DNA of 44,632 bases from a virus. The notes under the pieces were generated by a model. The model did not search any database, was not told the origin of the DNA, and was given only the letters and a program-made list of their open reading frames with translations. The translations under genes were made by a program, and so were the position numbers. The stretch lies in the UHGV virus genome UHGV-0179607; one strand, written 5' to 3'. Within the stretch, counting starts at the first letter, position 1; every line of letters begins with the position of its first letter. Below, piece after piece: positions 4,944 to 12,702 of the stretch.

Positions 4944-5551
4944 CAACGTTTAAATTGTACGGCGTCTTAGGGCGTCGATTCGGTAAAGTGCATAGGCTGG
5001 ACTGTTTCACACCGGGCGAAGGAATCACCGGCTTGTGTGTGAAGTTGCCGGGGTTACAAGACTTTTTAATGTCCGCCCACCTGGATAACATGATGTTCAA
5101 GGTGCGCAAAGGCGACCACACGATGACCGGCTATGATGAGCTGGGCGAGTTCCACGGCAACCGCGTAGTTACCATCGCGCCGGTTATGACGGGCGCAAAA
5201 AGAGGGTTGGGACAATTGCTGGCGGGTGTCGCGATCGTTGTGGCGTCGTTCTATACGGGCGGACTTGCTACTGCCGCTTTCGGGGCTTCGGCTGCAACCG
5301 CTGCCGCTATCGGAACGGCGACGTTTTCGTTCGGGATGTCGATGGCGCTGGGTGGCGTTATGCAATTGCTGTCGCCACAACCGAAAGGATTGCAGACAAG
5401 GCAGGACGTGGATAACAAAGCGTCGTACGCGTTCGGCGGGCCAGTGAACACGACCGCGCAAGGTACGGCGCTTGGTGTATTATGGGGCGAGCGTGAGATC
5501 GGCGGCGCTATTATTTCAGCCGGAATCGTAACCGAGGATTTGAACGAATGA
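4934..5551 (+). CDS. tail assembly protein, lambda gpI-like
   Basis: 205 aa between the K-like and J-like genes; hydrophobic Gly/Ala-rich C-terminal segment; overlapping start/stop with both neighbours. Confidence 0.6.
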   Translation: MAMTTFKLYGVLGRRFGKVHRLDCFTPGEGITGLCVKLPGLQDFLMSAHLDNMMFKVRKGDHTMTGYDELGEFHGNRVVTIAPVMTGAKRGLGQLLAGVAIVVASFYTGGLATAAFGASAATAAAIGTATFSFGMSMALGGVMQLLSPQPKGLQTRQDVDNKASYAFGGPVNTTAQGTALGVLWGEREIGGAIISAGIVTEDLNE

Positions 5552-8500
5552 CGATTATTTACGACGTCACGGGCCATAAAGGCGGCGGTGGCAAACAGCA
5601 CACCCCACAGGAGACACCCGATAGCCTGCATTCTCTGGCTAAAATCCGCATCTTGCTTGCGCTGGGAGAAGGTGAGTTCGAAGGTATTCCAGACTCTAAC
5701 GAATTACGGCGGCGCGTATATCTGGACGGAACACCGATCCAGAATGCAGACCTGTCTGAAAACTTCCCTGGGGCGCGTGTGGAGTTCCGCCCAGGAACAC
5801 AGCACCAGGATGTGATCCACGGATTTTCAGCGGTGGAAAGTGAGCAATCTGTCGGCGTAAAACTGGAAAACGGCACGCCGTGGGTGCGCCAGATTAACGA
5901 TACCAGTCTGGACGCCGTTCGCATTCGCATCGGCATTCCGGCCCTGTACACTAACGAAGATAACGGCGACCTGGTGGGCGGGCGCATCGACTATAAGATC
6001 GTTGTGTATACGGATAACGCCGATCCGCGTGAGTTCAGATTCGCCGCCGTTGGTAAAACAATGTCGCTATATGAGCGCGACCACCGCATCGAATTACCAC
6101 CGAACGTGAATACCGGCTGGCGAGTGGAGGTGCACCGCATAACGGCAGACTCCACATCGGCGAAAGTGGTTAATGATATCCGGGTGCAATCCATCACTGA
6201 GATTATCGACGCCCGCCTGCGTTACCCGCTAACCGCGCTGTTGTTTGTGGAGTTCGACGCTAAAGCGTTCCAGAACATCCCGCGCGTGTCCATTAAGTGC
6301 AAAGGTCGCAAAGTTCTAATACCGAACAACTACGACCCGATCAATCATACCTATTCCGGGGACTGGGACGGCACGTTTAAACGCGCATGGACGGATAACC
6401 CTGCGTGGCACTGGTACGATATTTGTATTACTGAGCGCTTCGGCCTCGGTCGGCGTATCAAACCGCAAATGCTAAACCGATACGCGCTCTACCAGATTGC
6501 GCAGCGCTGCGATCAGTTGGTCAGCGACGGCAACGGTGGTCGAGAAATCCGCTTTAAGAATGATATGTACATTCAGTCACAGACGGATGCCTGGACCGTG
6601 CTTAAGGATTTAGCCGCCATCTTCGCCGGAATGACCTGGTGGGGTAACCAGATGTTGAATATCGTCAGTGACCAACCGGTCGCAGCAGTGTCGCACACTA
6701 TCACCAACGCCTCGGTAATTGATGGTCGATTCGACTACGCATCTGGCAGCCAGAAAACTCGCTATTCCACATTTGCGGTCGCATACGGCAACCCGAAGAA
6801 CCACTATGAAGATGCCATCGCAACGGGGCAGCGCGTCGAACTGGTACGCCGCCATAAGATTAACCGTCTTGATATTACGGCGATCGGCTGTACGCGTGAA
6901 TCTGAAGCGCAACGCCGCGGGCACTGGGCACTAATTTCCAACCAGCTTGACCAGCAAGTTAGTTTTAAGGTTGGCATGGAGGGGCTATTCTTTATTCCGG
7001 GTAGCGTAGTCGCGATCGCAGATACAAACATTTCTGGCGGCTTCGAGACACGCGGCGGTCGCCTGTTGTCGGACCCTGGCACGCGTACAGTGCTTAACAC
7101 GGACAGCGAAATCACGTTCCGCCCAGGTGATAAATTCCTGGTACGCACCGATAGCGGTAATGTAGAGACTCGCGAGATCGCCAGCGTCAACGGCAACAAG
7201 GTTACGCTAAAAACCGCACTGGACGCCGACCCGATTCCTGATCAGCCGTTTTGCGTCGATGGCAACGATATCCAGTTGCAGAAGTTCCGCATCACCGACC
7301 TGGAATATGACGACTCTACCAGCACTTTTTCAGTGCGCGGGATCGAGTACAACGATAGCAAATATGATGCCGTTGATAATGGCGCTCGCCTTGATCCGGG
7401 CATCTTTACTCAAGTGCCCGACGGTGTAATGAAGGGGCCAGAGTCCGTAACCATCACCCCGTCGCAGATTTCATCGCAAGGCCAGCTAATCACCAACGTG
7501 GATATTGTATTCCCTCCGGTGAAGGACGCCGTGGTGTATGAAATCCAGTGGCGACGTACCAGCTTGCAGAATATGAAAATCCAGTGGGGTAACGACTGGG
7601 TGAACATCCCCCGCACGGCCTCGAACGGCGCGCACATCCCTAACGTGTTCTCCGGTAACTACCAGGCACGCGTCCGCGCAATCGGTATGGGCGAGATTTC
7701 ATCCCCGTGGGTGTCGTCTGCCATCACGCCGATAGAAGGTCGTCTCGGCGGGCTTAACGCGCCTATCATCACCAACGCGATTTCGGGCCTCCACCAAATT
7801 TTGTGGAAGTGGAACCACAACAACGCCGCGACGGATATTTCGTACACCGAGCTTGAAGTGCGCAAGACCGGTGAAACGGAGTGGAAATTTCTTACCAACG
7901 TCCCATATCCGGGGGCGGAGTATGCGCAAACGTCACTGGAGTTCGGGATCTATCAGCAGTTGCGCGCCCGTGTAGCGGATAAAATCGGCAACCTGTCGGA
8001 CTGGTCGGCCCCGTTTGAAGGGCAGGTGAGTGACAAAGTTGACGAATACATGAAGGGGCTTGATGACGAGTTCTTGACTTCCGAGGACGGTAAACGCTTC
8101 CAGGAAGCGATCGACACCATGCCGCAAGGTATCTATGAGTCTATGCTTACGGACGCCCAGCAGCTATTCAATGCCCGCGCCGAGTATAAAGGGATTTATG
8201 CGGAAATCACGGTGGCGTATAACGTGGCGGCGGACGCGCATAAAGCCGTAGCGCAACTGGAAACGTTGATCGGCACGCGCCTTGATGACGCTGAAGCATC
8301 AATCCACACGTTGCAGACTGCGCAAAGCACACATGAACAAGCGTTCGCCCAGTACCAGCAAACTGTTGCCGCTAAGTTTTCGGAACAGGAAGCAGCCATC
8401 CAGCAGGTACAAACGGCAACGGCGGACGTGGCTGGCGCGCTGGCAGAGTATAAGACCCAGGTCGCGGCGCAGTTCGGACAGCAGTCCGCAGCTATCGAGC

Positions 8501-8994
8501 AGAAGATGACGTCTTCGTTTAACCATGCTGGTGGCAGCGCCACGTACAGTCTTAAGGCTGGCGTGACGTATAACGGGACTTACTATGACGCCGGTATGCA
8601 GCTTTCAGTTGTGACGTCTGGCAACGCAGTTAAATCGCGTATTGCGTTCAAAGCCGACCAGTTCTATATCATGCACCCATCTAATGGGTCGCTTTCGTCC
8701 GCGTTTATCGTTGACGGCGGGCAGGTGTACATCGACACGGCACGCATCAAGGATGCGTCAATCAACTTTGCACAGATCACGGACACGCTGCAATCAAATA
8801 ACTTCGCTTCAGGGTCACGCGGCTGGCGTATCCAGAAAGGCGGCGCTGCGGAGTTTAACGAAGTAACGGTCCGCGGCAACCTGTACGCCACATCCGGTAA
8901 CTTCGGATTCTCTGGTGGGACCGTGACGATTGACAAGACAGGAGTAAACGTGCCGTTACCTGGCGGGGGAAGGGTGAAAGTCGGGACGTGGTAA
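5548..8994 (+). CDS. central tail fibre / host specificity protein, lambda gpJ-like
   Basis: 1148 aa, last gene of the L-K-I-J block; followed by a rho-independent terminator. Confidence 0.8.
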   Translation: MTIIYDVTGHKGGGGKQHTPQETPDSLHSLAKIRILLALGEGEFEGIPDSNELRRRVYLDGTPIQNADLSENFPGARVEFRPGTQHQDVIHGFSAVESEQSVGVKLENGTPWVRQINDTSLDAVRIRIGIPALYTNEDNGDLVGGRIDYKIVVYTDNADPREFRFAAVGKTMSLYERDHRIELPPNVNTGWRVEVHRITADSTSAKVVNDIRVQSITEIIDARLRYPLTALLFVEFDAKAFQNIPRVSIKCKGRKVLIPNNYDPINHTYSGDWDGTFKRAWTDNPAWHWYDICITERFGLGRRIKPQMLNRYALYQIAQRCDQLVSDGNGGREIRFKNDMYIQSQTDAWTVLKDLAAIFAGMTWWGNQMLNIVSDQPVAAVSHTITNASVIDGRFDYASGSQKTRYSTFAVAYGNPKNHYEDAIATGQRVELVRRHKINRLDITAIGCTRESEAQRRGHWALISNQLDQQVSFKVGMEGLFFIPGSVVAIADTNISGGFETRGGRLLSDPGTRTVLNTDSEITFRPGDKFLVRTDSGNVETREIASVNGNKVTLKTALDADPIPDQPFCVDGNDIQLQKFRITDLEYDDSTSTFSVRGIEYNDSKYDAVDNGARLDPGIFTQVPDGVMKGPESVTITPSQISSQGQLITNVDIVFPPVKDAVVYEIQWRRTSLQNMKIQWGNDWVNIPRTASNGAHIPNVFSGNYQARVRAIGMGEISSPWVSSAITPIEGRLGGLNAPIITNAISGLHQILWKWNHNNAATDISYTELEVRKTGETEWKFLTNVPYPGAEYAQTSLEFGIYQQLRARVADKIGNLSDWSAPFEGQVSDKVDEYMKGLDDEFLTSEDGKRFQEAIDTMPQGIYESMLTDAQQLFNARAEYKGIYAEITVAYNVAADAHKAVAQLETLIGTRLDDAEASIHTLQTAQSTHEQAFAQYQQTVAAKFSEQEAAIQQVQTATADVAGALAEYKTQVAAQFGQQSAAIEQKMTSSFNHAGGSATYSLKAGVTYNGTYYDAGMQLSVVTSGNAVKSRIAFKADQFYIMHPSNGSLSSAFIVDGGQVYIDTARIKDASINFAQITDTLQSNNFASGSRGWRIQKGGAAEFNEVTVRGNLYATSGNFGFSGGTVTIDKTGVNVPLPGGGRVKVGTW

Positions 8995-9000
8995 ATGCGA

Positions 9001-9024
9001 TGGGGCCAGATGGCCCCATTTTCA
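9001..9024 (+). terminator. rho-independent terminator after the J-like gene
   Basis: Perfect 8-bp stem TGGGGCCA / TGGCCCCA followed by TTTTC; also lies at the 3' end of the convergent minus-strand gene. Confidence 0.6.
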
Positions 9025-9987
9025 ATACATATTCGGGATGACGAGTAGCGGGGTTGGTACTGCAATATTTTTACTTGGCATCTGGAATTGCTGCCGTGAG
9101 TAGTTGCCGATGACGCGGTTTTTAGCGACGCGCACATTATTACCCGCCATGCGTATGCCGTTCATGCGGACGTGGTTATAGCCACCGTTGTTCTGAATCA
9201 GTGCGCCGGTGTATGAAAGCTGGATCAGGCTGTTTCCAATATTCTGGTCGCCCGTTCCGATGTTAATAGTGCGGTCATATACGAACGGCTTGTTCACCGT
9301 CGAGAACGTAACCTGATTCTGGTTATTCGTCATGGTGATTCCGGCCCCCGGCGTGGGTGGTGTGTTGTTGAATATCACCAAATCCATGTCCACCGAAGCC
9401 GCCACATCGTCGATGCCTCCATAGGACGCGTTGCGGACGATAATACTGCCGCCATCGAAGCCTACTGATACGTTGCCATCATCCCATCGGGCGAACGGAA
9501 CACCGCCAACCGGCAAGGCCATACTACCGTTGACGCGCACGCGCTGTGCGTATCGGCAGGTCATTAGCTTAGACACGTTGGATATGGCGGTGAAGTCCGT
9601 CGAGTTAGCCACCAGTAAACCTGCGTTGCGCGAACCAACCGGCAGCACTTCCATTATGACGCCCGCCCATTGTGGTAAACCAGAGTACGCGCCATACGCA
9701 TCCTCCCCGCGCAGGGTGATACCACTATTACCGTTGCGAGTAACCGACGTAACGTAAAACGGGTCGGGAATTACCAGGGTCTGGTCAAACACCTCAATCA
9801 CTTCTACCGGGCGAGTTAGCGCGACGATGACCTGCGACCCATCCGTAAGCGGGGTGTTAATGGTTAGCGTCTTGTTGGACTGTGCCCGCTGGTTAAAGCT
9901 GGTGCAGTATGACGGCGCGCGGAGTCCCGCGGTTATCTCCATGCGCGGCCTTCCGTCGTTATAGTCGATAAGTATTCCAGCGCCCAT
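9022..9987 (-). CDS. putative receptor-binding protein (beta-helix-like, hypothetical)
   Basis: 321 aa from ATG 9987 with GGGAG SD; Asn/Gly/Thr/Ser-rich repetitive beta-strand composition; translationally coupled to the upstream lipoprotein gene; position between the J-like gene and the lateral tail fibre gene as in T5 (pb5/llp) and T1-like RBP loci. Confidence 0.35.
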   Translation of the reverse strand: MGAGILIDYNDGRPRMEITAGLRAPSYCTSFNQRAQSNKTLTINTPLTDGSQVIVALTRPVEVIEVFDQTLVIPDPFYVTSVTRNGNSGITLRGEDAYGAYSGLPQWAGVIMEVLPVGSRNAGLLVANSTDFTAISNVSKLMTCRYAQRVRVNGSMALPVGGVPFARWDDGNVSVGFDGGSIIVRNASYGGIDDVAASVDMDLVIFNNTPPTPGAGITMTNNQNQVTFSTVNKPFVYDRTINIGTGDQNIGNSLIQLSYTGALIQNNGGYNHVRMNGIRMAGNNVRVAKNRVIGNYSRQQFQMPSKNIAVPTPLLVIPNMY

Positions 9988-9989
9988 TA

Positions 9990-10211
9990 TTACCACTCCC
10001 GTGATTTAACTGATACTGTGCCTGAGAAATTGCCGTCGCTATCTGAAGACAGCCCAGTGAATCGCATGTCTACATCTCCTGCCGGTACTTTTTGCCCGTC
10101 AACGTAGCGCAACATGCAGCTACCGTAAGCAACCGTAACGCAATCGCCGTTGTTGCGTTCTACGGCGCAACCGGACAAAAGGACCGCACAAATCATAATT
10201 AAAGTTTTCAT
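9990..10211 (-). CDS. outer-membrane lipoprotein, Cor/Llp-like superinfection exclusion candidate
   Basis: 73 aa from ATG 10211; N-terminus MKTLIMICAVLLSGC has a signal peptide with lipobox LSGC; own promoter-like sequence upstream; adjacent to the receptor-binding locus. Confidence 0.5.
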   Translation of the reverse strand: MKTLIMICAVLLSGCAVERNNGDCVTVAYGSCMLRYVDGQKVPAGDVDMRFTGLSSDSDGNFSGTVSVKSREW

Positions 10212-10242
10212 GGTATCATCCCCTATATTTGGTTGAGTTTTA

Positions 10243-10270
10243 GTATTACACCGCTCAACCAGGATTGCAA
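10243..10270 (-). promoter_or_regulatory. sigma70-like promoter for the lipoprotein/RBP pair
   Basis: On the minus strand TTGCAA - 16 bp - TAATAC, about 35 nt upstream of the lipoprotein start; overlaps a copy of the TTGGTTGCA motif. Confidence 0.35.
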
Positions 10271-10290
10271 CCAATTACGAGGATTTAGCT

Positions 10291-12702
10291 ATGGCAGCGG
10301 GTACGCTATCCGTAACGAACAATAGCAAGGCGGTAGTAGGGGTCGGCACCACGTTTACCGCGTTTAAAGCTGGCGACTTCTTAACGTTGGTGGTAGGGCA
10401 AGTCCCATACACCGTGGCAATCGCGTCCATTGAAAGCGCAACCGCGCTTACGCTGGTGCTGCCGTTCGACGGCCCAACGGCAACCGGCCTTGCGTGGGAC
10501 GGCGTTAAGCGCGATACCATGTCACTGGCAACGATGGGCGTTACCGTACAGGCACAGAAAGCGTTGCGATTGATGATCGCAGATGAAAACAACTGGCGCG
10601 CTATCTTCGGCGAAGAAGAAGAAATCTCGGTCACGCTACCGAACGGTCAAGTGGTGCAGGGTATGTCGTGGGGCTACCTGTCAAAACTGCTTAAAGACGT
10701 AGATCCTGTTGAATTGCAGGCTATCGCGGACCAGACCATCACGGCTAAAAACCAGGCGCAAGGATTCCGTAACGAGGCGGAAGGCTTCAAGAACACCGCG
10801 AATACCGCGAAAGATGCCGCAGTAGCTGCGAAGACAGCGGCGGAGACAGCTAAGTCGCAGGCCGTAACCGCTAAAACGGCAGCCGAGTCCGCAAAGACTG
10901 CCGCGGAGACAGCTAAGTCGCAGGCCGTAACCGCTAAAGACCAGGCCAAAGGATTTCGCGACGAGGCTGAAGGCTTCGCCAACAGCGCGGACGCGTCAAA
11001 GAAAGTGCCGTATGCTGGCGTAACACTACCGGCACCGACTGGAGTAAGGGATATGCTCAAGCGGTTGCGCGATTCGGTTAAGGGCGGCTTCTGGCGCGTC
11101 GATGATATTGCGCAGTTTCCATCTGGCGAGATGACCCCTTTCAGATACGGACCTGGCGTATGTGGCGGCGCGGGGGATACATTCTTTGCAATCAACGTTG
11201 ACTGGCAAACCTCGCGCGTTAAAGTTTTCTCGGGAAACAACAACGCGATCAACGGTGCGTCGGGAAGTGTTAGCGCTATCGAACTGGCTAAGCTGGGGGC
11301 TAACGGGGACGTGGAGATCGGGGACGGCGGGACCGGTGCATCGAACGACCAGGGCGCGAGAAAAAACCTTCAGGCAATGCACGAGCGACAGGCATCGTTG
11401 AATACTGAAGATCTTAACGTCCTTCAGGGTGATAAGGCTGGGTTTTATTATCAGTCCATGTCGGCTAACGCCACCCCAGAGCGTAACTATCCTACTAACA
11501 TGGCGGGTTGTTTACTGGTGCAAAGATCCGGTGCTAACGACCCGAAGAGTTGCATACAGACGTACGCTACCTACGGCGACGGTCGGCGATGGATTCGATG
11601 GTTAGGCAACGCGGCTACGGGTACCTGGTCGCAGTGGTACGAGATGTTTAATGCTGGGTCATCTCCAGAATTTAACGCATACGTAAGAGCTAAAAGCGGC
11701 GATCGAATCGTCGAAATGTTTGTAGGCGGCATTGATGTTGGCGTTCGCAACCGCACGTCGCAGAAAGTGCTACAGCTTCGTGACAACGGCGAACTGGCGT
11801 ATGACAACAAGCTGATCGCATATAACGGACTTGAAGCCAGCGGCACATTTGCTATGCGAATTCCTAGTATGAAGGTAATAACAGCAAATGGTGGCTTCCG
11901 GATCGACGGAACAGTGTCAACAAACAACCAACCACTGCACGTAACAGGGTACAACTCAGCAGGCACGCGTCTTTGGTTTTTAGGGAAGGACACCGGGACG
12001 AGCGCGCTATTCCTGAACGATATAACGTCTTCTAAAGTTGAACTGATCACGGACGGCGTTGTGCTTGGTACGAAGGATTTCGCGGGAAAAGCATACGTTC
12101 AGGCCGCAAGTTTAGAGATCGACCGCCCGAGTGGCAAGTATTTCAAAATGCTGAACGACGGCAACTCGTCACACCCCGCAACCTTCAAATTATGGGGTAA
12201 CGGGTCTGATAGGGCGTCGGTTATTGAGTGGGGTTTTGATAACGGCCCTGGGTGGGTGTTTTACGCGCAATATAATAGCAACGGCACGCGCCAGATGAAC
12301 GTTAACGGAACGGTAAACTGTACGACGGTAAACCAGTCGTCTGACCGCGAGTTGAAGGATAACATCAAGCCGATCGAGAACGCCCGCGCGGGCCTTGCTA
12401 AGATGGGTGGCTATACCTACACCCTGAAGAAAGACGGTATGCCGTACGCCGGGGTGATTGCACAGGAAGTAATGGACGTTGTGCCAGAAGCGGTGAGCAC
12501 GTTTGAGGACTACGAATACCTTGCGGGTCCAACGCAAGACGGCGAGGAACTGGTAGGGCGTCAGCGCTTCTTCCAGGTGGACTACGGCGCTATTGCTGCA
12601 TACGCGGTGCAAGTGTGTAAAGAGCAGGAAGAGGAACTGGTGTCTTTGCGTAGCGAACTGGAGGAATTGAAAGCTGCCGTAGCGGCACTGACTAAAGCAT
12701 AA
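10291..12702 (+). CDS. tail fibre protein with C-terminal intramolecular chaperone (peptidase S74-like) domain
   Basis: 803 aa; C-terminal region SDRELKDNIKPIENARAGLAKMGGYTYTLKKDG...AGVIAQEVMDVVPEAV matches the self-cleaving chaperone domain of endosialidase and T5 L-shaped tail fibre type proteins; internal tandem repeats; strong RBS. Confidence 0.8.
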   Translation: MAAGTLSVTNNSKAVVGVGTTFTAFKAGDFLTLVVGQVPYTVAIASIESATALTLVLPFDGPTATGLAWDGVKRDTMSLATMGVTVQAQKALRLMIADENNWRAIFGEEEEISVTLPNGQVVQGMSWGYLSKLLKDVDPVELQAIADQTITAKNQAQGFRNEAEGFKNTANTAKDAAVAAKTAAETAKSQAVTAKTAAESAKTAAETAKSQAVTAKDQAKGFRDEAEGFANSADASKKVPYAGVTLPAPTGVRDMLKRLRDSVKGGFWRVDDIAQFPSGEMTPFRYGPGVCGGAGDTFFAINVDWQTSRVKVFSGNNNAINGASGSVSAIELAKLGANGDVEIGDGGTGASNDQGARKNLQAMHERQASLNTEDLNVLQGDKAGFYYQSMSANATPERNYPTNMAGCLLVQRSGANDPKSCIQTYATYGDGRRWIRWLGNAATGTWSQWYEMFNAGSSPEFNAYVRAKSGDRIVEMFVGGIDVGVRNRTSQKVLQLRDNGELAYDNKLIAYNGLEASGTFAMRIPSMKVITANGGFRIDGTVSTNNQPLHVTGYNSAGTRLWFLGKDTGTSALFLNDITSSKVELITDGVVLGTKDFAGKAYVQAASLEIDRPSGKYFKMLNDGNSSHPATFKLWGNGSDRASVIEWGFDNGPGWVFYAQYNSNGTRQMNVNGTVNCTTVNQSSDRELKDNIKPIENARAGLAKMGGYTYTLKKDGMPYAGVIAQEVMDVVPEAVSTFEDYEYLAGPTQDGEELVGRQRFFQVDYGAIAAYAVQVCKEQEEELVSLRSELEELKAAVAALTKA
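10840..10938 (+). repeat. 36-bp perfect tandem-type repeat inside the tail fibre gene
   Basis: GCGGAGACAGCTAAGTCGCAGGCCGTAACCGCTAAA occurs at 10840-10875 and 10903-10938, encoding repeated AETAKSQAVTAK units. Confidence 0.7.

Follow-up and report, generated by a model that had tools for sequence, protein, structure and literature searches.

The stretch of DNA analysed here (the window, 44,632 b) is an almost complete Dhillonvirus genome. Two minus-strand genes are enclosed in it between the gene for a lambda-J-like tail tip protein (5548-8994, plus strand; FNIII-A_GpJ, Phage-tail_3 and Phage_Tail_Tip domains, with the PF09327 match at residues 982-1118 of J) and that for the lateral tail fibre (10291-12702, plus strand; C-terminal Peptidase_S74 chaperone). 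The first encodes a 321-aa DUF6453 protein (PF20051; 9022..9987), the orthologue of bas18_0025 (RBPOeko) and a distant homologue of Rtp44, which by homology would be an LptD-specific receptor-binding protein (RBP). The second encodes a putative superinfection-exclusion lipoprotein of 73 aa (PF24052; 9990..10211), orthologous to SEOeko (bas18_0026) and homologous to Rtp45. An earlier note on this DNA had described such a minus-strand pair between the J-like gene and the fibre gene, and both genes are indeed antiparallel to their neighbours. The J stop at 8994 is followed by the RBP stop at 9022, and the lipoprotein gene lies directly upstream of the RBP gene, an order also found in Oekolampad, StarDew and HK578. 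The gene junction (9985..9992, minus strand) reads TAA-TA-ATG, as the note had it: the stop TAA at 9992-9990, a 2-nt spacer TA, and the ATG at 9987-9985; the same junction is annotated in Oekolampad. Such a spacing would fit translational coupling between the two genes. An alternative RBP start, GTG at 9996, would give 324 aa. Both ORFs are real genes, since their PF20051 and PF24052 scores are far above the curated cut-offs. Over 1.5 kb around the locus, the Escherichia phage Gluttony_ev152 is 99.5% identical at the DNA level and other Dhillonvirus genomes, including Oekolampad (Bas18), are 94-97% identical.

The smaller protein had been recognised as a 73-aa lipoprotein with the lipobox LLSGC, and its ORF (10211..9990, minus strand) does begin MKTLIMICAVLLSGC15-A, with a ribosome-binding site AGGGGA 7 nt upstream of the start. 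The start and signal peptide are MKTLIMICAVLLSGC, the lipobox is L-S-G-C15, and the segment MKTLIMICAVLLSG-C15, with Ala at +2 and no Asp, is of the kind cleaved by signal peptidase II. The Lol +2 rule is the standard basis for lipoprotein sorting, and because of the Ala at +2 the protein is expected to be sorted to the outer membrane. PF24052 (Phage_lipoprotein) matches residues 3-73 with 76.6 bits against a cut-off of 27 (E 1.5e-21), and phrog_4281 matches with E 1.6e-33. Identity to Oekolampad bas18_0026 (SEOeko) is 72/73 (98.6%), the single change being V25I. In the PDB the protein matches 9RPS_D, which is Rtp45 (E 1.5e-8); Cys24 and Cys32 align with Cys30-Cys38 of Rtp45 at the same 8-residue spacing, and in Rtp45 this pair forms a disulfide (PMC12685063). 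Membership of the Cor family was considered and rejected, as similarity does not extend across the mature protein. The match to phrog_1119 ('Cor superinfection exclusion protein') is weak (E 5.4e-4) and covers residues 1-30 only, because the signal peptide is backbone shared with the Cor-type allele: in the Cor-type lipoprotein of PaulFeyerabend, MKTLIMICAVLLSGC is identical and the mature part is unrelated.

The 321-aa protein matches DUF6453 with 404.3 bits against a cut-off of 25, over profile positions 1-290 of 291. It had been called Asn/Gly/Thr-rich, which stands for Gly (10.3%) and Asn (9.7%) and fails for Thr (7.5%); with Val at 10.0%, it is Gly/Val/Asn-rich instead. A phmmer search of all PDB chains returned as sole match chain C of 9RPT/9RPW/9RQI, 'Tail fiber protein', over its full length (E 1.4e-207). 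This chain is RBPOeko, which is identical at 312 of the 321 positions (97.2%). The substitutions relative to it are D49A, I54V, E95D, S139A, Q148K, G161S, A215T, G246S and S305G; all nine lie outside the invariant and nearly invariant columns of that family's alignment, and Gln299, a named LptD contact, is kept. The structure prediction suggested in the earlier note was run with AlphaFold2 on a 38-sequence alignment of database homologues and gave a confident model (pLDDT 91.5, pTM 0.90), an all-beta soluble fold without transmembrane helices. This is the fold of the solved DUF6453 member, two lectin-like beta-sandwiches with loops at one end. The label 'beta-helix-like' therefore has to be given up, as no parallel beta-helix appears in the model. 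Two other identities were tried and discarded: that of a right-handed beta-helix tailspike or fibre, on account of the lectin-like beta-sandwiches, and membership of the T5 pb5 family, to which neither sequence nor fold similarity was detected.

Conservation in the family is highest over the first 20 residues of the RBP, with a mean entropy of 0.58 vs 1.52 overall. The unrelated 223-aa protein of the FhuA-type locus has a comparable motif at its N-terminus, G-x-L-I-D-x-N-x-G-x-P, and in Citrobacter phage HCF1 the match is limited to RBP residues 1-34, with 82% identity. Black et al. proposed a common tail-docking N-terminal end for such RBPs (PMC13035648); the conserved N-terminus, the shared motif and the HCF1 match would fit such an end. 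No match was obtained when 5,426 complete genomes of E. coli were searched by blastn with the locus, hence it is without close chromosomal copies among them; more distant chromosomal (prophage) DUF6453 genes exist, with 35-56% identity.

Much is known about near-identical proteins. In small siphoviruses, 'bona fide RBP loci' and their cognate exclusion genes stand immediately behind gpJ and can be exchanged, and the locus type found here has already been assigned to LptD specificity (Maffei et al. 2021, PMC8594841). Infection by Oekolampad depends on LptD (PMC8594841, PMC12685063); it is blocked in E. coli with lptD Delta(Y658-Y678)::H or Delta(L394-V396)::Y (Maffei et al. 2021) and with LptD D352Y or Y671N (Dunbar et al.). 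In 2025, a cryo-EM map at 2.8 A showed RBPOeko, a soluble protein, bound to LptDE from the extracellular side (Dunbar et al., PMC12685063), with an interface of ~1,700 A2 that involves extracellular loops 3-5 and 11 and a hydrogen bond from RBPOeko Gln299 to LptD Ser350; the RBPOeko-LptDE complex forms very slowly in vitro (PMC12685063). In the same work Rtp45 (9RPS) was bound at the periplasmic membrane interface of LptD, where its hairpin ascends the lumen and moves extracellular loop 4 of LptD by up to 20 A, so that Rtp45-bound LptD is sterically incompatible with RBP binding (PMC12685063). The authors named bas18_0026, 35% identical to Rtp45, as the exclusion lipoprotein of Oekolampad; its expression failed, and thus the exclusion mechanism has been demonstrated for Rtp45 only (PMC12685063). 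The locus is therefore already known, for it is the near-identical orthologue of a module whose structure and genetics have been worked out. The earlier proposal of an RBP paired with a lipoprotein that blocks its outer-membrane receptor, on the model of T5 and T1-like phages, is supported by the matches to RBPOeko, SEOeko and Rtp45. By near-identity, the roles of RBPOeko and SEOeko may be assigned to the pair in the window, and we infer from the sequence that this phage uses LptD as its receptor. The earlier note named no receptor; the one assigned here is LptD.

The closest known system, Oekolampad (Bas18), belongs to the same genus and has the same slot between J and the lateral tail fibre, the same orientation, junction and fold. 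Identities to the window are 97.2% for the RBP, 98.6% for the lipoprotein and 97.8% for J, and the differences amount to the nine RBP substitutions and the single lipoprotein substitution. The lateral tail fibre, however, is a different allele (803 aa in the window vs 606 aa in Oekolampad, 34% global identity), and thus the O-antigen or primary-receptor range of this phage probably differs from that of Oekolampad. The T1-like phage Rtp (Drexlerviridae) has a homologous pair, Rtp44/Rtp45, downstream of gpJ, with the Cys pair conserved, and HK578 carries an Rtp-type allele in a Dhillonvirus backbone; unlike Oekolampad, Rtp belongs to another phage family, its proteins are at ~33-35% identity (published for the Oekolampad proteins) and Rtp44 is without a solved structure. 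T5 pb5 (oad) and Llp follow the same logic, with a monomeric tip RBP for an outer-membrane protein and a small periplasmic lipoprotein that prevents RBP binding. However, the receptor of T5 is FhuA, and Llp acts by long-range allostery whereas Rtp45 displaces a loop sterically (PMC12685063). The slot, promoter, ribosome-binding site and signal peptide are also shared with the Cor system of T1/phi80/N15 and the FhuA-type Dhillonvirus locus (PaulFeyerabend gp25-gp27), but in PaulFeyerabend the mature lipoprotein is unrelated, and the candidates for the RBP are encoded by two genes on the plus strand, for 100 and 223 aa, neither of them DUF6453.

Comparison of these alleles places the joints of the cassette. 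On the left, DNA homology to PaulFeyerabend (Cor/FhuA-type locus) ends at window position 8806, 63 codons before the J stop, and that to HK578 (Rtp44/45-like allele) at 8888. On the right, homology to the Cor-type phage PaulFeyerabend restarts at 10168, inside the Cys15 codon. As homology stops at 8806 and restarts at 10168, the exchangeable unit would comprise about 8807-10167, that is, the J tip, the hairpin described below, the RBP gene and the mature part of the lipoprotein. The promoter, ribosome-binding site and signal peptide belong to the backbone, common to the five locus types encountered. The last 63 codons of J (8807..8994, plus strand), which lie inside the Phage_Tail_Tip domain, co-vary with the RBP allele, and the J tips of the window, PaulFeyerabend and HK578 differ in line with it. 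Of the 158 records that match 6500-10400, 45 were sampled, and a large share of these keep J and the start of the fibre with another cassette; many sister Dhillonviruses carry a Cor gene here.

The promoter-like sequence that the note had attributed to the pair was found in part. The consensus scan of 10212-10290 (minus strand) called no sigma-70-like promoter; by eye, TTGCAA (10270-10265) is followed after 17 nt by TG-n-AATACT (10250-10242), which amounts to 8/12 plus an extended -10. These -35- and -10-like elements lie in a promoter-like region (10242..10274, minus strand) that reads TTGGTTGCAA at its -35-like TTGCAA; it belongs to the conserved backbone, outside the exchangeable cassette. 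In an alignment of nine Dhillonviruses of five different locus types, the -35 element, TTGGTTGCA, the ribosome-binding site and the opening codons (MKTL) do not vary. Ioannina diverges between these elements, yet has TATATT at the same 17-nt spacing. The 9-mer TTGGTTGCA occurs 12 times in the window vs 0.34 expected, and its class also stands before non-structural minus-strand genes. An inverted repeat, GGTTGAG-N16-CTCAACC (10231..10260; one match in the window vs 0.01 expected), brackets the -10-like element and is a candidate for an operator or a 5' RNA hairpin; it is kept in eight of the nine aligned phages and lost in Ioannina.

The terminator that the pair was said to share with J fared similarly. 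A GC-rich hairpin is present between the converging J and RBP genes (8999..9020), with MFE of -18.5 (plus) and -16.5 (minus) kcal/mol and z of -2.64 and -2.53, respectively. A T-run lies beside it only on the plus (J) side, where TTTTCAAT comes after the hairpin, and the consensus scan between J and the RBP gene called no canonical terminator. The hairpin is thus a plausible intrinsic terminator for J and a weak candidate for that of the minus-strand operon.

Relatives of both proteins were found outside the siphoviruses. With the two window proteins as tblastn queries, phiEco32-like podoviruses (Gordonclarkvirinae) were matched at separate genome positions. In Bas91, gene 0013 encodes the nozzle protein (Trp839/847/857, as in SU10 gp17). 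The 322-aa product of gene 0014 is near-identical over its full length (E 1.3e-210) to a chain of PDB 7Z4B, the 'tail tip fiber' of SU10; it is without short-fibre motifs and carries Pfam Phage_Tail_Tip, as the siphoviral J tip does; it ends in ...RIRIGSW and the window J in ...RVKVGTW. Because of the near-identical 7Z4B chain and the absence of short-fibre motifs, gene 0014 is taken to encode the putative tail needle, equivalent to SU10 gp18. Gene 0015, at the position of SU10 gp19, encodes a DUF6453 protein (E 1.9e-23; E 2.8e-9 against 9RPT_C), and gene 0016 the transglycosylase ejection protein (gp20 in SU10); gp19 is never mentioned in the SU10 structure paper. The lipoprotein relative, ECBP2_0100, is a 108-aa PF24052 protein amid a run of small hypothetical genes, and it matches LptDE-bound Rtp45 (E 1.4e-15) better than the window lipoprotein does. 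At an identity of at least 60%, ~92 phage records were found for Bas91_0015 and ~73 for ECBP2_0100. No paper joining phiEco32 and LptD was found in the literature searched, and the BASEL-II paper was the one found there that names both Gordonclarkvirinae and LptD; in the available part of it, LptD is mentioned only for Dhillonviruses, and short tail fibres of the Gordonclarkvirinae podoviruses are proposed there to bind the LPS core.

On this homology and synteny, the locus could be one allele of a portable kit for host recognition with three parts: a tip domain of the J type, an RBP of the DUF6453 family and a lipoprotein of the PF24052 family. Its joints in Dhillonvirus would lie inside J and at the lipobox Cys codon, with the promoter and signal peptide as a homology arm, and in Gordonclarkvirinae its parts would be unlinked. 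It follows as a prediction that LptD or another outer-membrane protein serves these podoviruses as an unrecognised terminal receptor, reached through an RBP at the needle tip. We hold this whole proposal tentatively, at slightly less than an even chance.

If the 321-aa protein acts as proposed, it must be incorporated into virions despite the position of its gene outside the tail operon. No virion proteomics for any DUF6453 protein was found in the literature searched; the published work on cell-free lysates of Dhillonvirus EE09 did detect a 224-aa protein from the analogous locus, which there is of another type. The tail operon of an E. coli prophage contains a J gene whose tip domain is that of the window J and, 8 nt further on in the same direction, the start of a DUF6453 gene, and the order from J-tip domain to DUF6453 is kept both there and in Gordonclarkvirinae. 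Virion incorporation would thus be supported by the co-variation with the J tip, the conserved N-terminus and the synteny in prophage and podoviruses. Because the prophage DUF6453 gene follows J inside the tail operon, the reversed direction of the RBP gene in small virulent siphoviruses is a local layout by which it is linked to the gene for the lipoprotein, and no sign of a non-structural role. We infer that the RBP would be attached to the J tip and that the last 63 codons of J would form its docking site. In a 2026 preprint, the GpJ tip was associated with receptor class.

Taken together, the locus is very probably the terminal-receptor module of this Dhillonvirus, combining an RBP for LptD and a lipoprotein that blocks LptD in one minus-strand operon. 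The 321-aa DUF6453 protein would be a monomeric receptor-binding protein whose binding triggers irreversible adsorption. The 73-aa protein would be anchored in the outer membrane as a periplasmic lipoprotein, bind LptD from the periplasmic side and push its extracellular loop 4 outward, so that the RBP could no longer bind LptD on infected cells or debris. The outcome would be both superinfection exclusion and protection of progeny virions. The two genes would form a single operon, read from the conserved backbone promoter and converging on the hairpin common to J; their co-transcription and its timing are presumed from this layout.

Public annotation suggests another role for the larger protein, that of a non-structural 'membrane protein' or moron that does not enter the virion. 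The label of phrog_1265 ('membrane protein; moron, auxiliary metabolic gene and host takeover'), the RefSeq name of homologues ('membrane protein') and the location of the gene on the strand opposite to the tail operon all favour it, but it is scarcely credible given that the near-identical RBPOeko is soluble and binds extracellular LptDE in the cryo-EM map, that the model is all-beta and soluble with no transmembrane helices, and that in prophage and podoviruses the DUF6453 gene sits within the tail operon directly after the J-tip or needle gene. It is also very unlikely that the module is of the proposed kind and that its nine substitutions turn it away from E. coli LptD towards another receptor. 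RBP loops do evolve fast and nine residues differ from RBPOeko; however, all nine changes are conservative or at variable positions, with none in an invariant column, the cognate lipoprotein differs from SEOeko only by V25I, and LptD remains the receptor associated with alleles that diverge far more (Rtp44 and AugustePiccard, at 33% identity). Almost no credence can be given to the idea that the lipoprotein blocks FhuA, in the manner of Cor from T1/phi80/N15, instead of LptD. The phrog_1119 match and the Cor gene in this slot of many sister phages would point that way, but that match stays within the residues that include MKTLIMICAVLLSGC, the mature parts are unrelated, and the mature lipoprotein matches PF24052 and Rtp45.

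The purpose of the lipoprotein is where a different account deserves more weight, although we consider it somewhat doubtful. The molecules would be the same, and the lipoprotein, made together with the RBP, would mainly keep progeny off the debris and vesicles of lysed cells, providing no early exclusion of the kind given by T5 Llp, which is made shortly after infection according to the accessible portion of the T5 FhuA:Llp preprint. The 2-nt junction and the single upstream promoter speak for joint expression with the RBP. The BASEL authors, in the available excerpt of their text, hold that Cor and Llp prevent adsorption of offspring to debris, and it is also counted in favour of this account that in Gordonclarkvirinae the homologous lipoprotein gene lies apart from the gene for the RBP, surrounded by small genes without known function. 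However, the TTGGTTGCA promoter class also precedes non-structural minus-strand genes, and the operon could thus be early; moreover, progeny protection and superinfection exclusion are not mutually exclusive. The reading preferred here, an LptD RBP with a lipoprotein that blocks LptD, accommodates both roles.

For the window itself the result is one of annotation: LptD is assignable as the terminal receptor from sequence alone, and two genes carried as 'hypothetical' or 'membrane protein' can now be named. The analysis also gives grounds for regarding the 'membrane protein/moron' label that DUF6453 carries in public annotation as an error. Beyond the literature consulted go the cassette boundaries, this mis-annotation of DUF6453, the TTGGTTGCA motif and the podovirus prediction; the exact boundaries would be useful for engineering receptor swaps. 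Since LptD is essential and conserved, RBPs that bind it and lipoproteins that exclude them are relevant to phage steering and antibiotic design, as has been argued in the 2021-2025 literature.

Comparison with the sister Dhillonvirus PaulFeyerabend, which has a Cor/FhuA-type locus, showed that window positions 8807-10167 constitute an exchangeable receptor cassette with sharp edges on both sides. The left edge lies 63 codons before the stop of J, the lambda-J-like tail tip gene, and the right edge falls within the lipobox Cys15 codon of the lipoprotein. The window lipoprotein shares its signal peptide MKTLIMICAVLLSGC, ribosome-binding site and promoter with the Cor-type lipoprotein of PaulFeyerabend, to which it is otherwise unrelated. 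Within the receptor-binding protein (RBP) family, conservation is highest at the N-terminus, residues 1-20 (window 9928-9987), which is similar to the N-termini of unrelated proteins encoded at the same locus (PaulFeyerabend gp26). In Citrobacter phage HCF1 the match to the RBP is restricted to residues 1-34, with 82% identity. The N-terminus is probably the common element for docking to the J tip.

In PHROG 1265 and RefSeq the RBP (window 9022-9987) and its homologues are named "membrane protein" and classed under "moron, auxiliary metabolic gene and host takeover". This public annotation is misleading, since the homologue with a solved structure is soluble and an RBP, presumably carried on the virion. 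Some database entries with near-identical Dhillonvirus or T1-like sequences bear the names "Acinetobacter phage NJ01", "Campylobacter phage A121/A134" and "Sodalis phage SO-1"; the host labels Acinetobacter, Campylobacter and Sodalis look doubtful, because the phages carry an enterobacterial LptD module.

The lateral tail fibre (window 10291-12702) has 803 aa and a Peptidase_S74 C-terminal chaperone. The fibre of phage Oekolampad has 606 aa and is only 34% identical to it overall, although J, RBP and lipoprotein are 97-99% identical between the two phages. By sequence comparison, the module for the primary (glycan) receptor has been swapped independently of the terminal-receptor module.

The 9-mer TTGGTTGCA occurs 12 times in the window (10274, 13928/13933, 15861/15844, 25517, 28796/28827, 29540, 32263 and 38966/38952), as opposed to 0.34 expected. 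Most copies lie between genes, ahead of a gene start; they often form tandem pairs (TTGGTTGCAC-TATA-TTGGTTGCAC) and in one place a palindrome. The motif resembles a promoter element used across the genome, or the binding site of a regulator. The inverted repeat GGTTGAG-N16-CTCAACC is found a single time in the window (10231-10260), where its two arms enclose the -10-like element in front of the lipoprotein/RBP operon. It is kept in eight of the nine aligned Dhillonviruses, Ioannina being the one that lacks it, and may serve as an operator or form a hairpin in the 5' leader.

Homologues of the RBP (DUF6453) with 35-56% identity are present on contigs of Citrobacter, Salmonella, E. coli and Trabulsiella. 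In the single context examined, a prophage of E. coli GCA_003773125.1 (locus L012, 2790-8136), the DUF6453 gene lies 8 nt behind J in the same orientation, with a side tail fibre gene after it. No PF24052 lipoprotein gene was found between the DUF6453 gene and its neighbours; a 131-aa lipoprotein ORF lies upstream (L012, 995-1390).

In the phiEco32-like podoviruses (Gordonclarkvirinae), the presumed tail needle carries a J-type Phage_Tail_Tip domain. The next gene encodes a DUF6453 protein and is placed where SU10 has gp19, a product mentioned nowhere in the SU10 structure paper (both genes in Bas91, locus L003, 628-6485). Elsewhere in the genome, a PF24052 lipoprotein gene (ECBP2, locus L004, 2474-2800) encodes a product matching the LptDE-bound Rtp45 (E 1.4e-15). 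The combination of needle domain, DUF6453 neighbour and Rtp45-like lipoprotein leads us to predict that the Gordonclarkvirinae have an unrecognised outer-membrane protein as terminal receptor, probably LptD.
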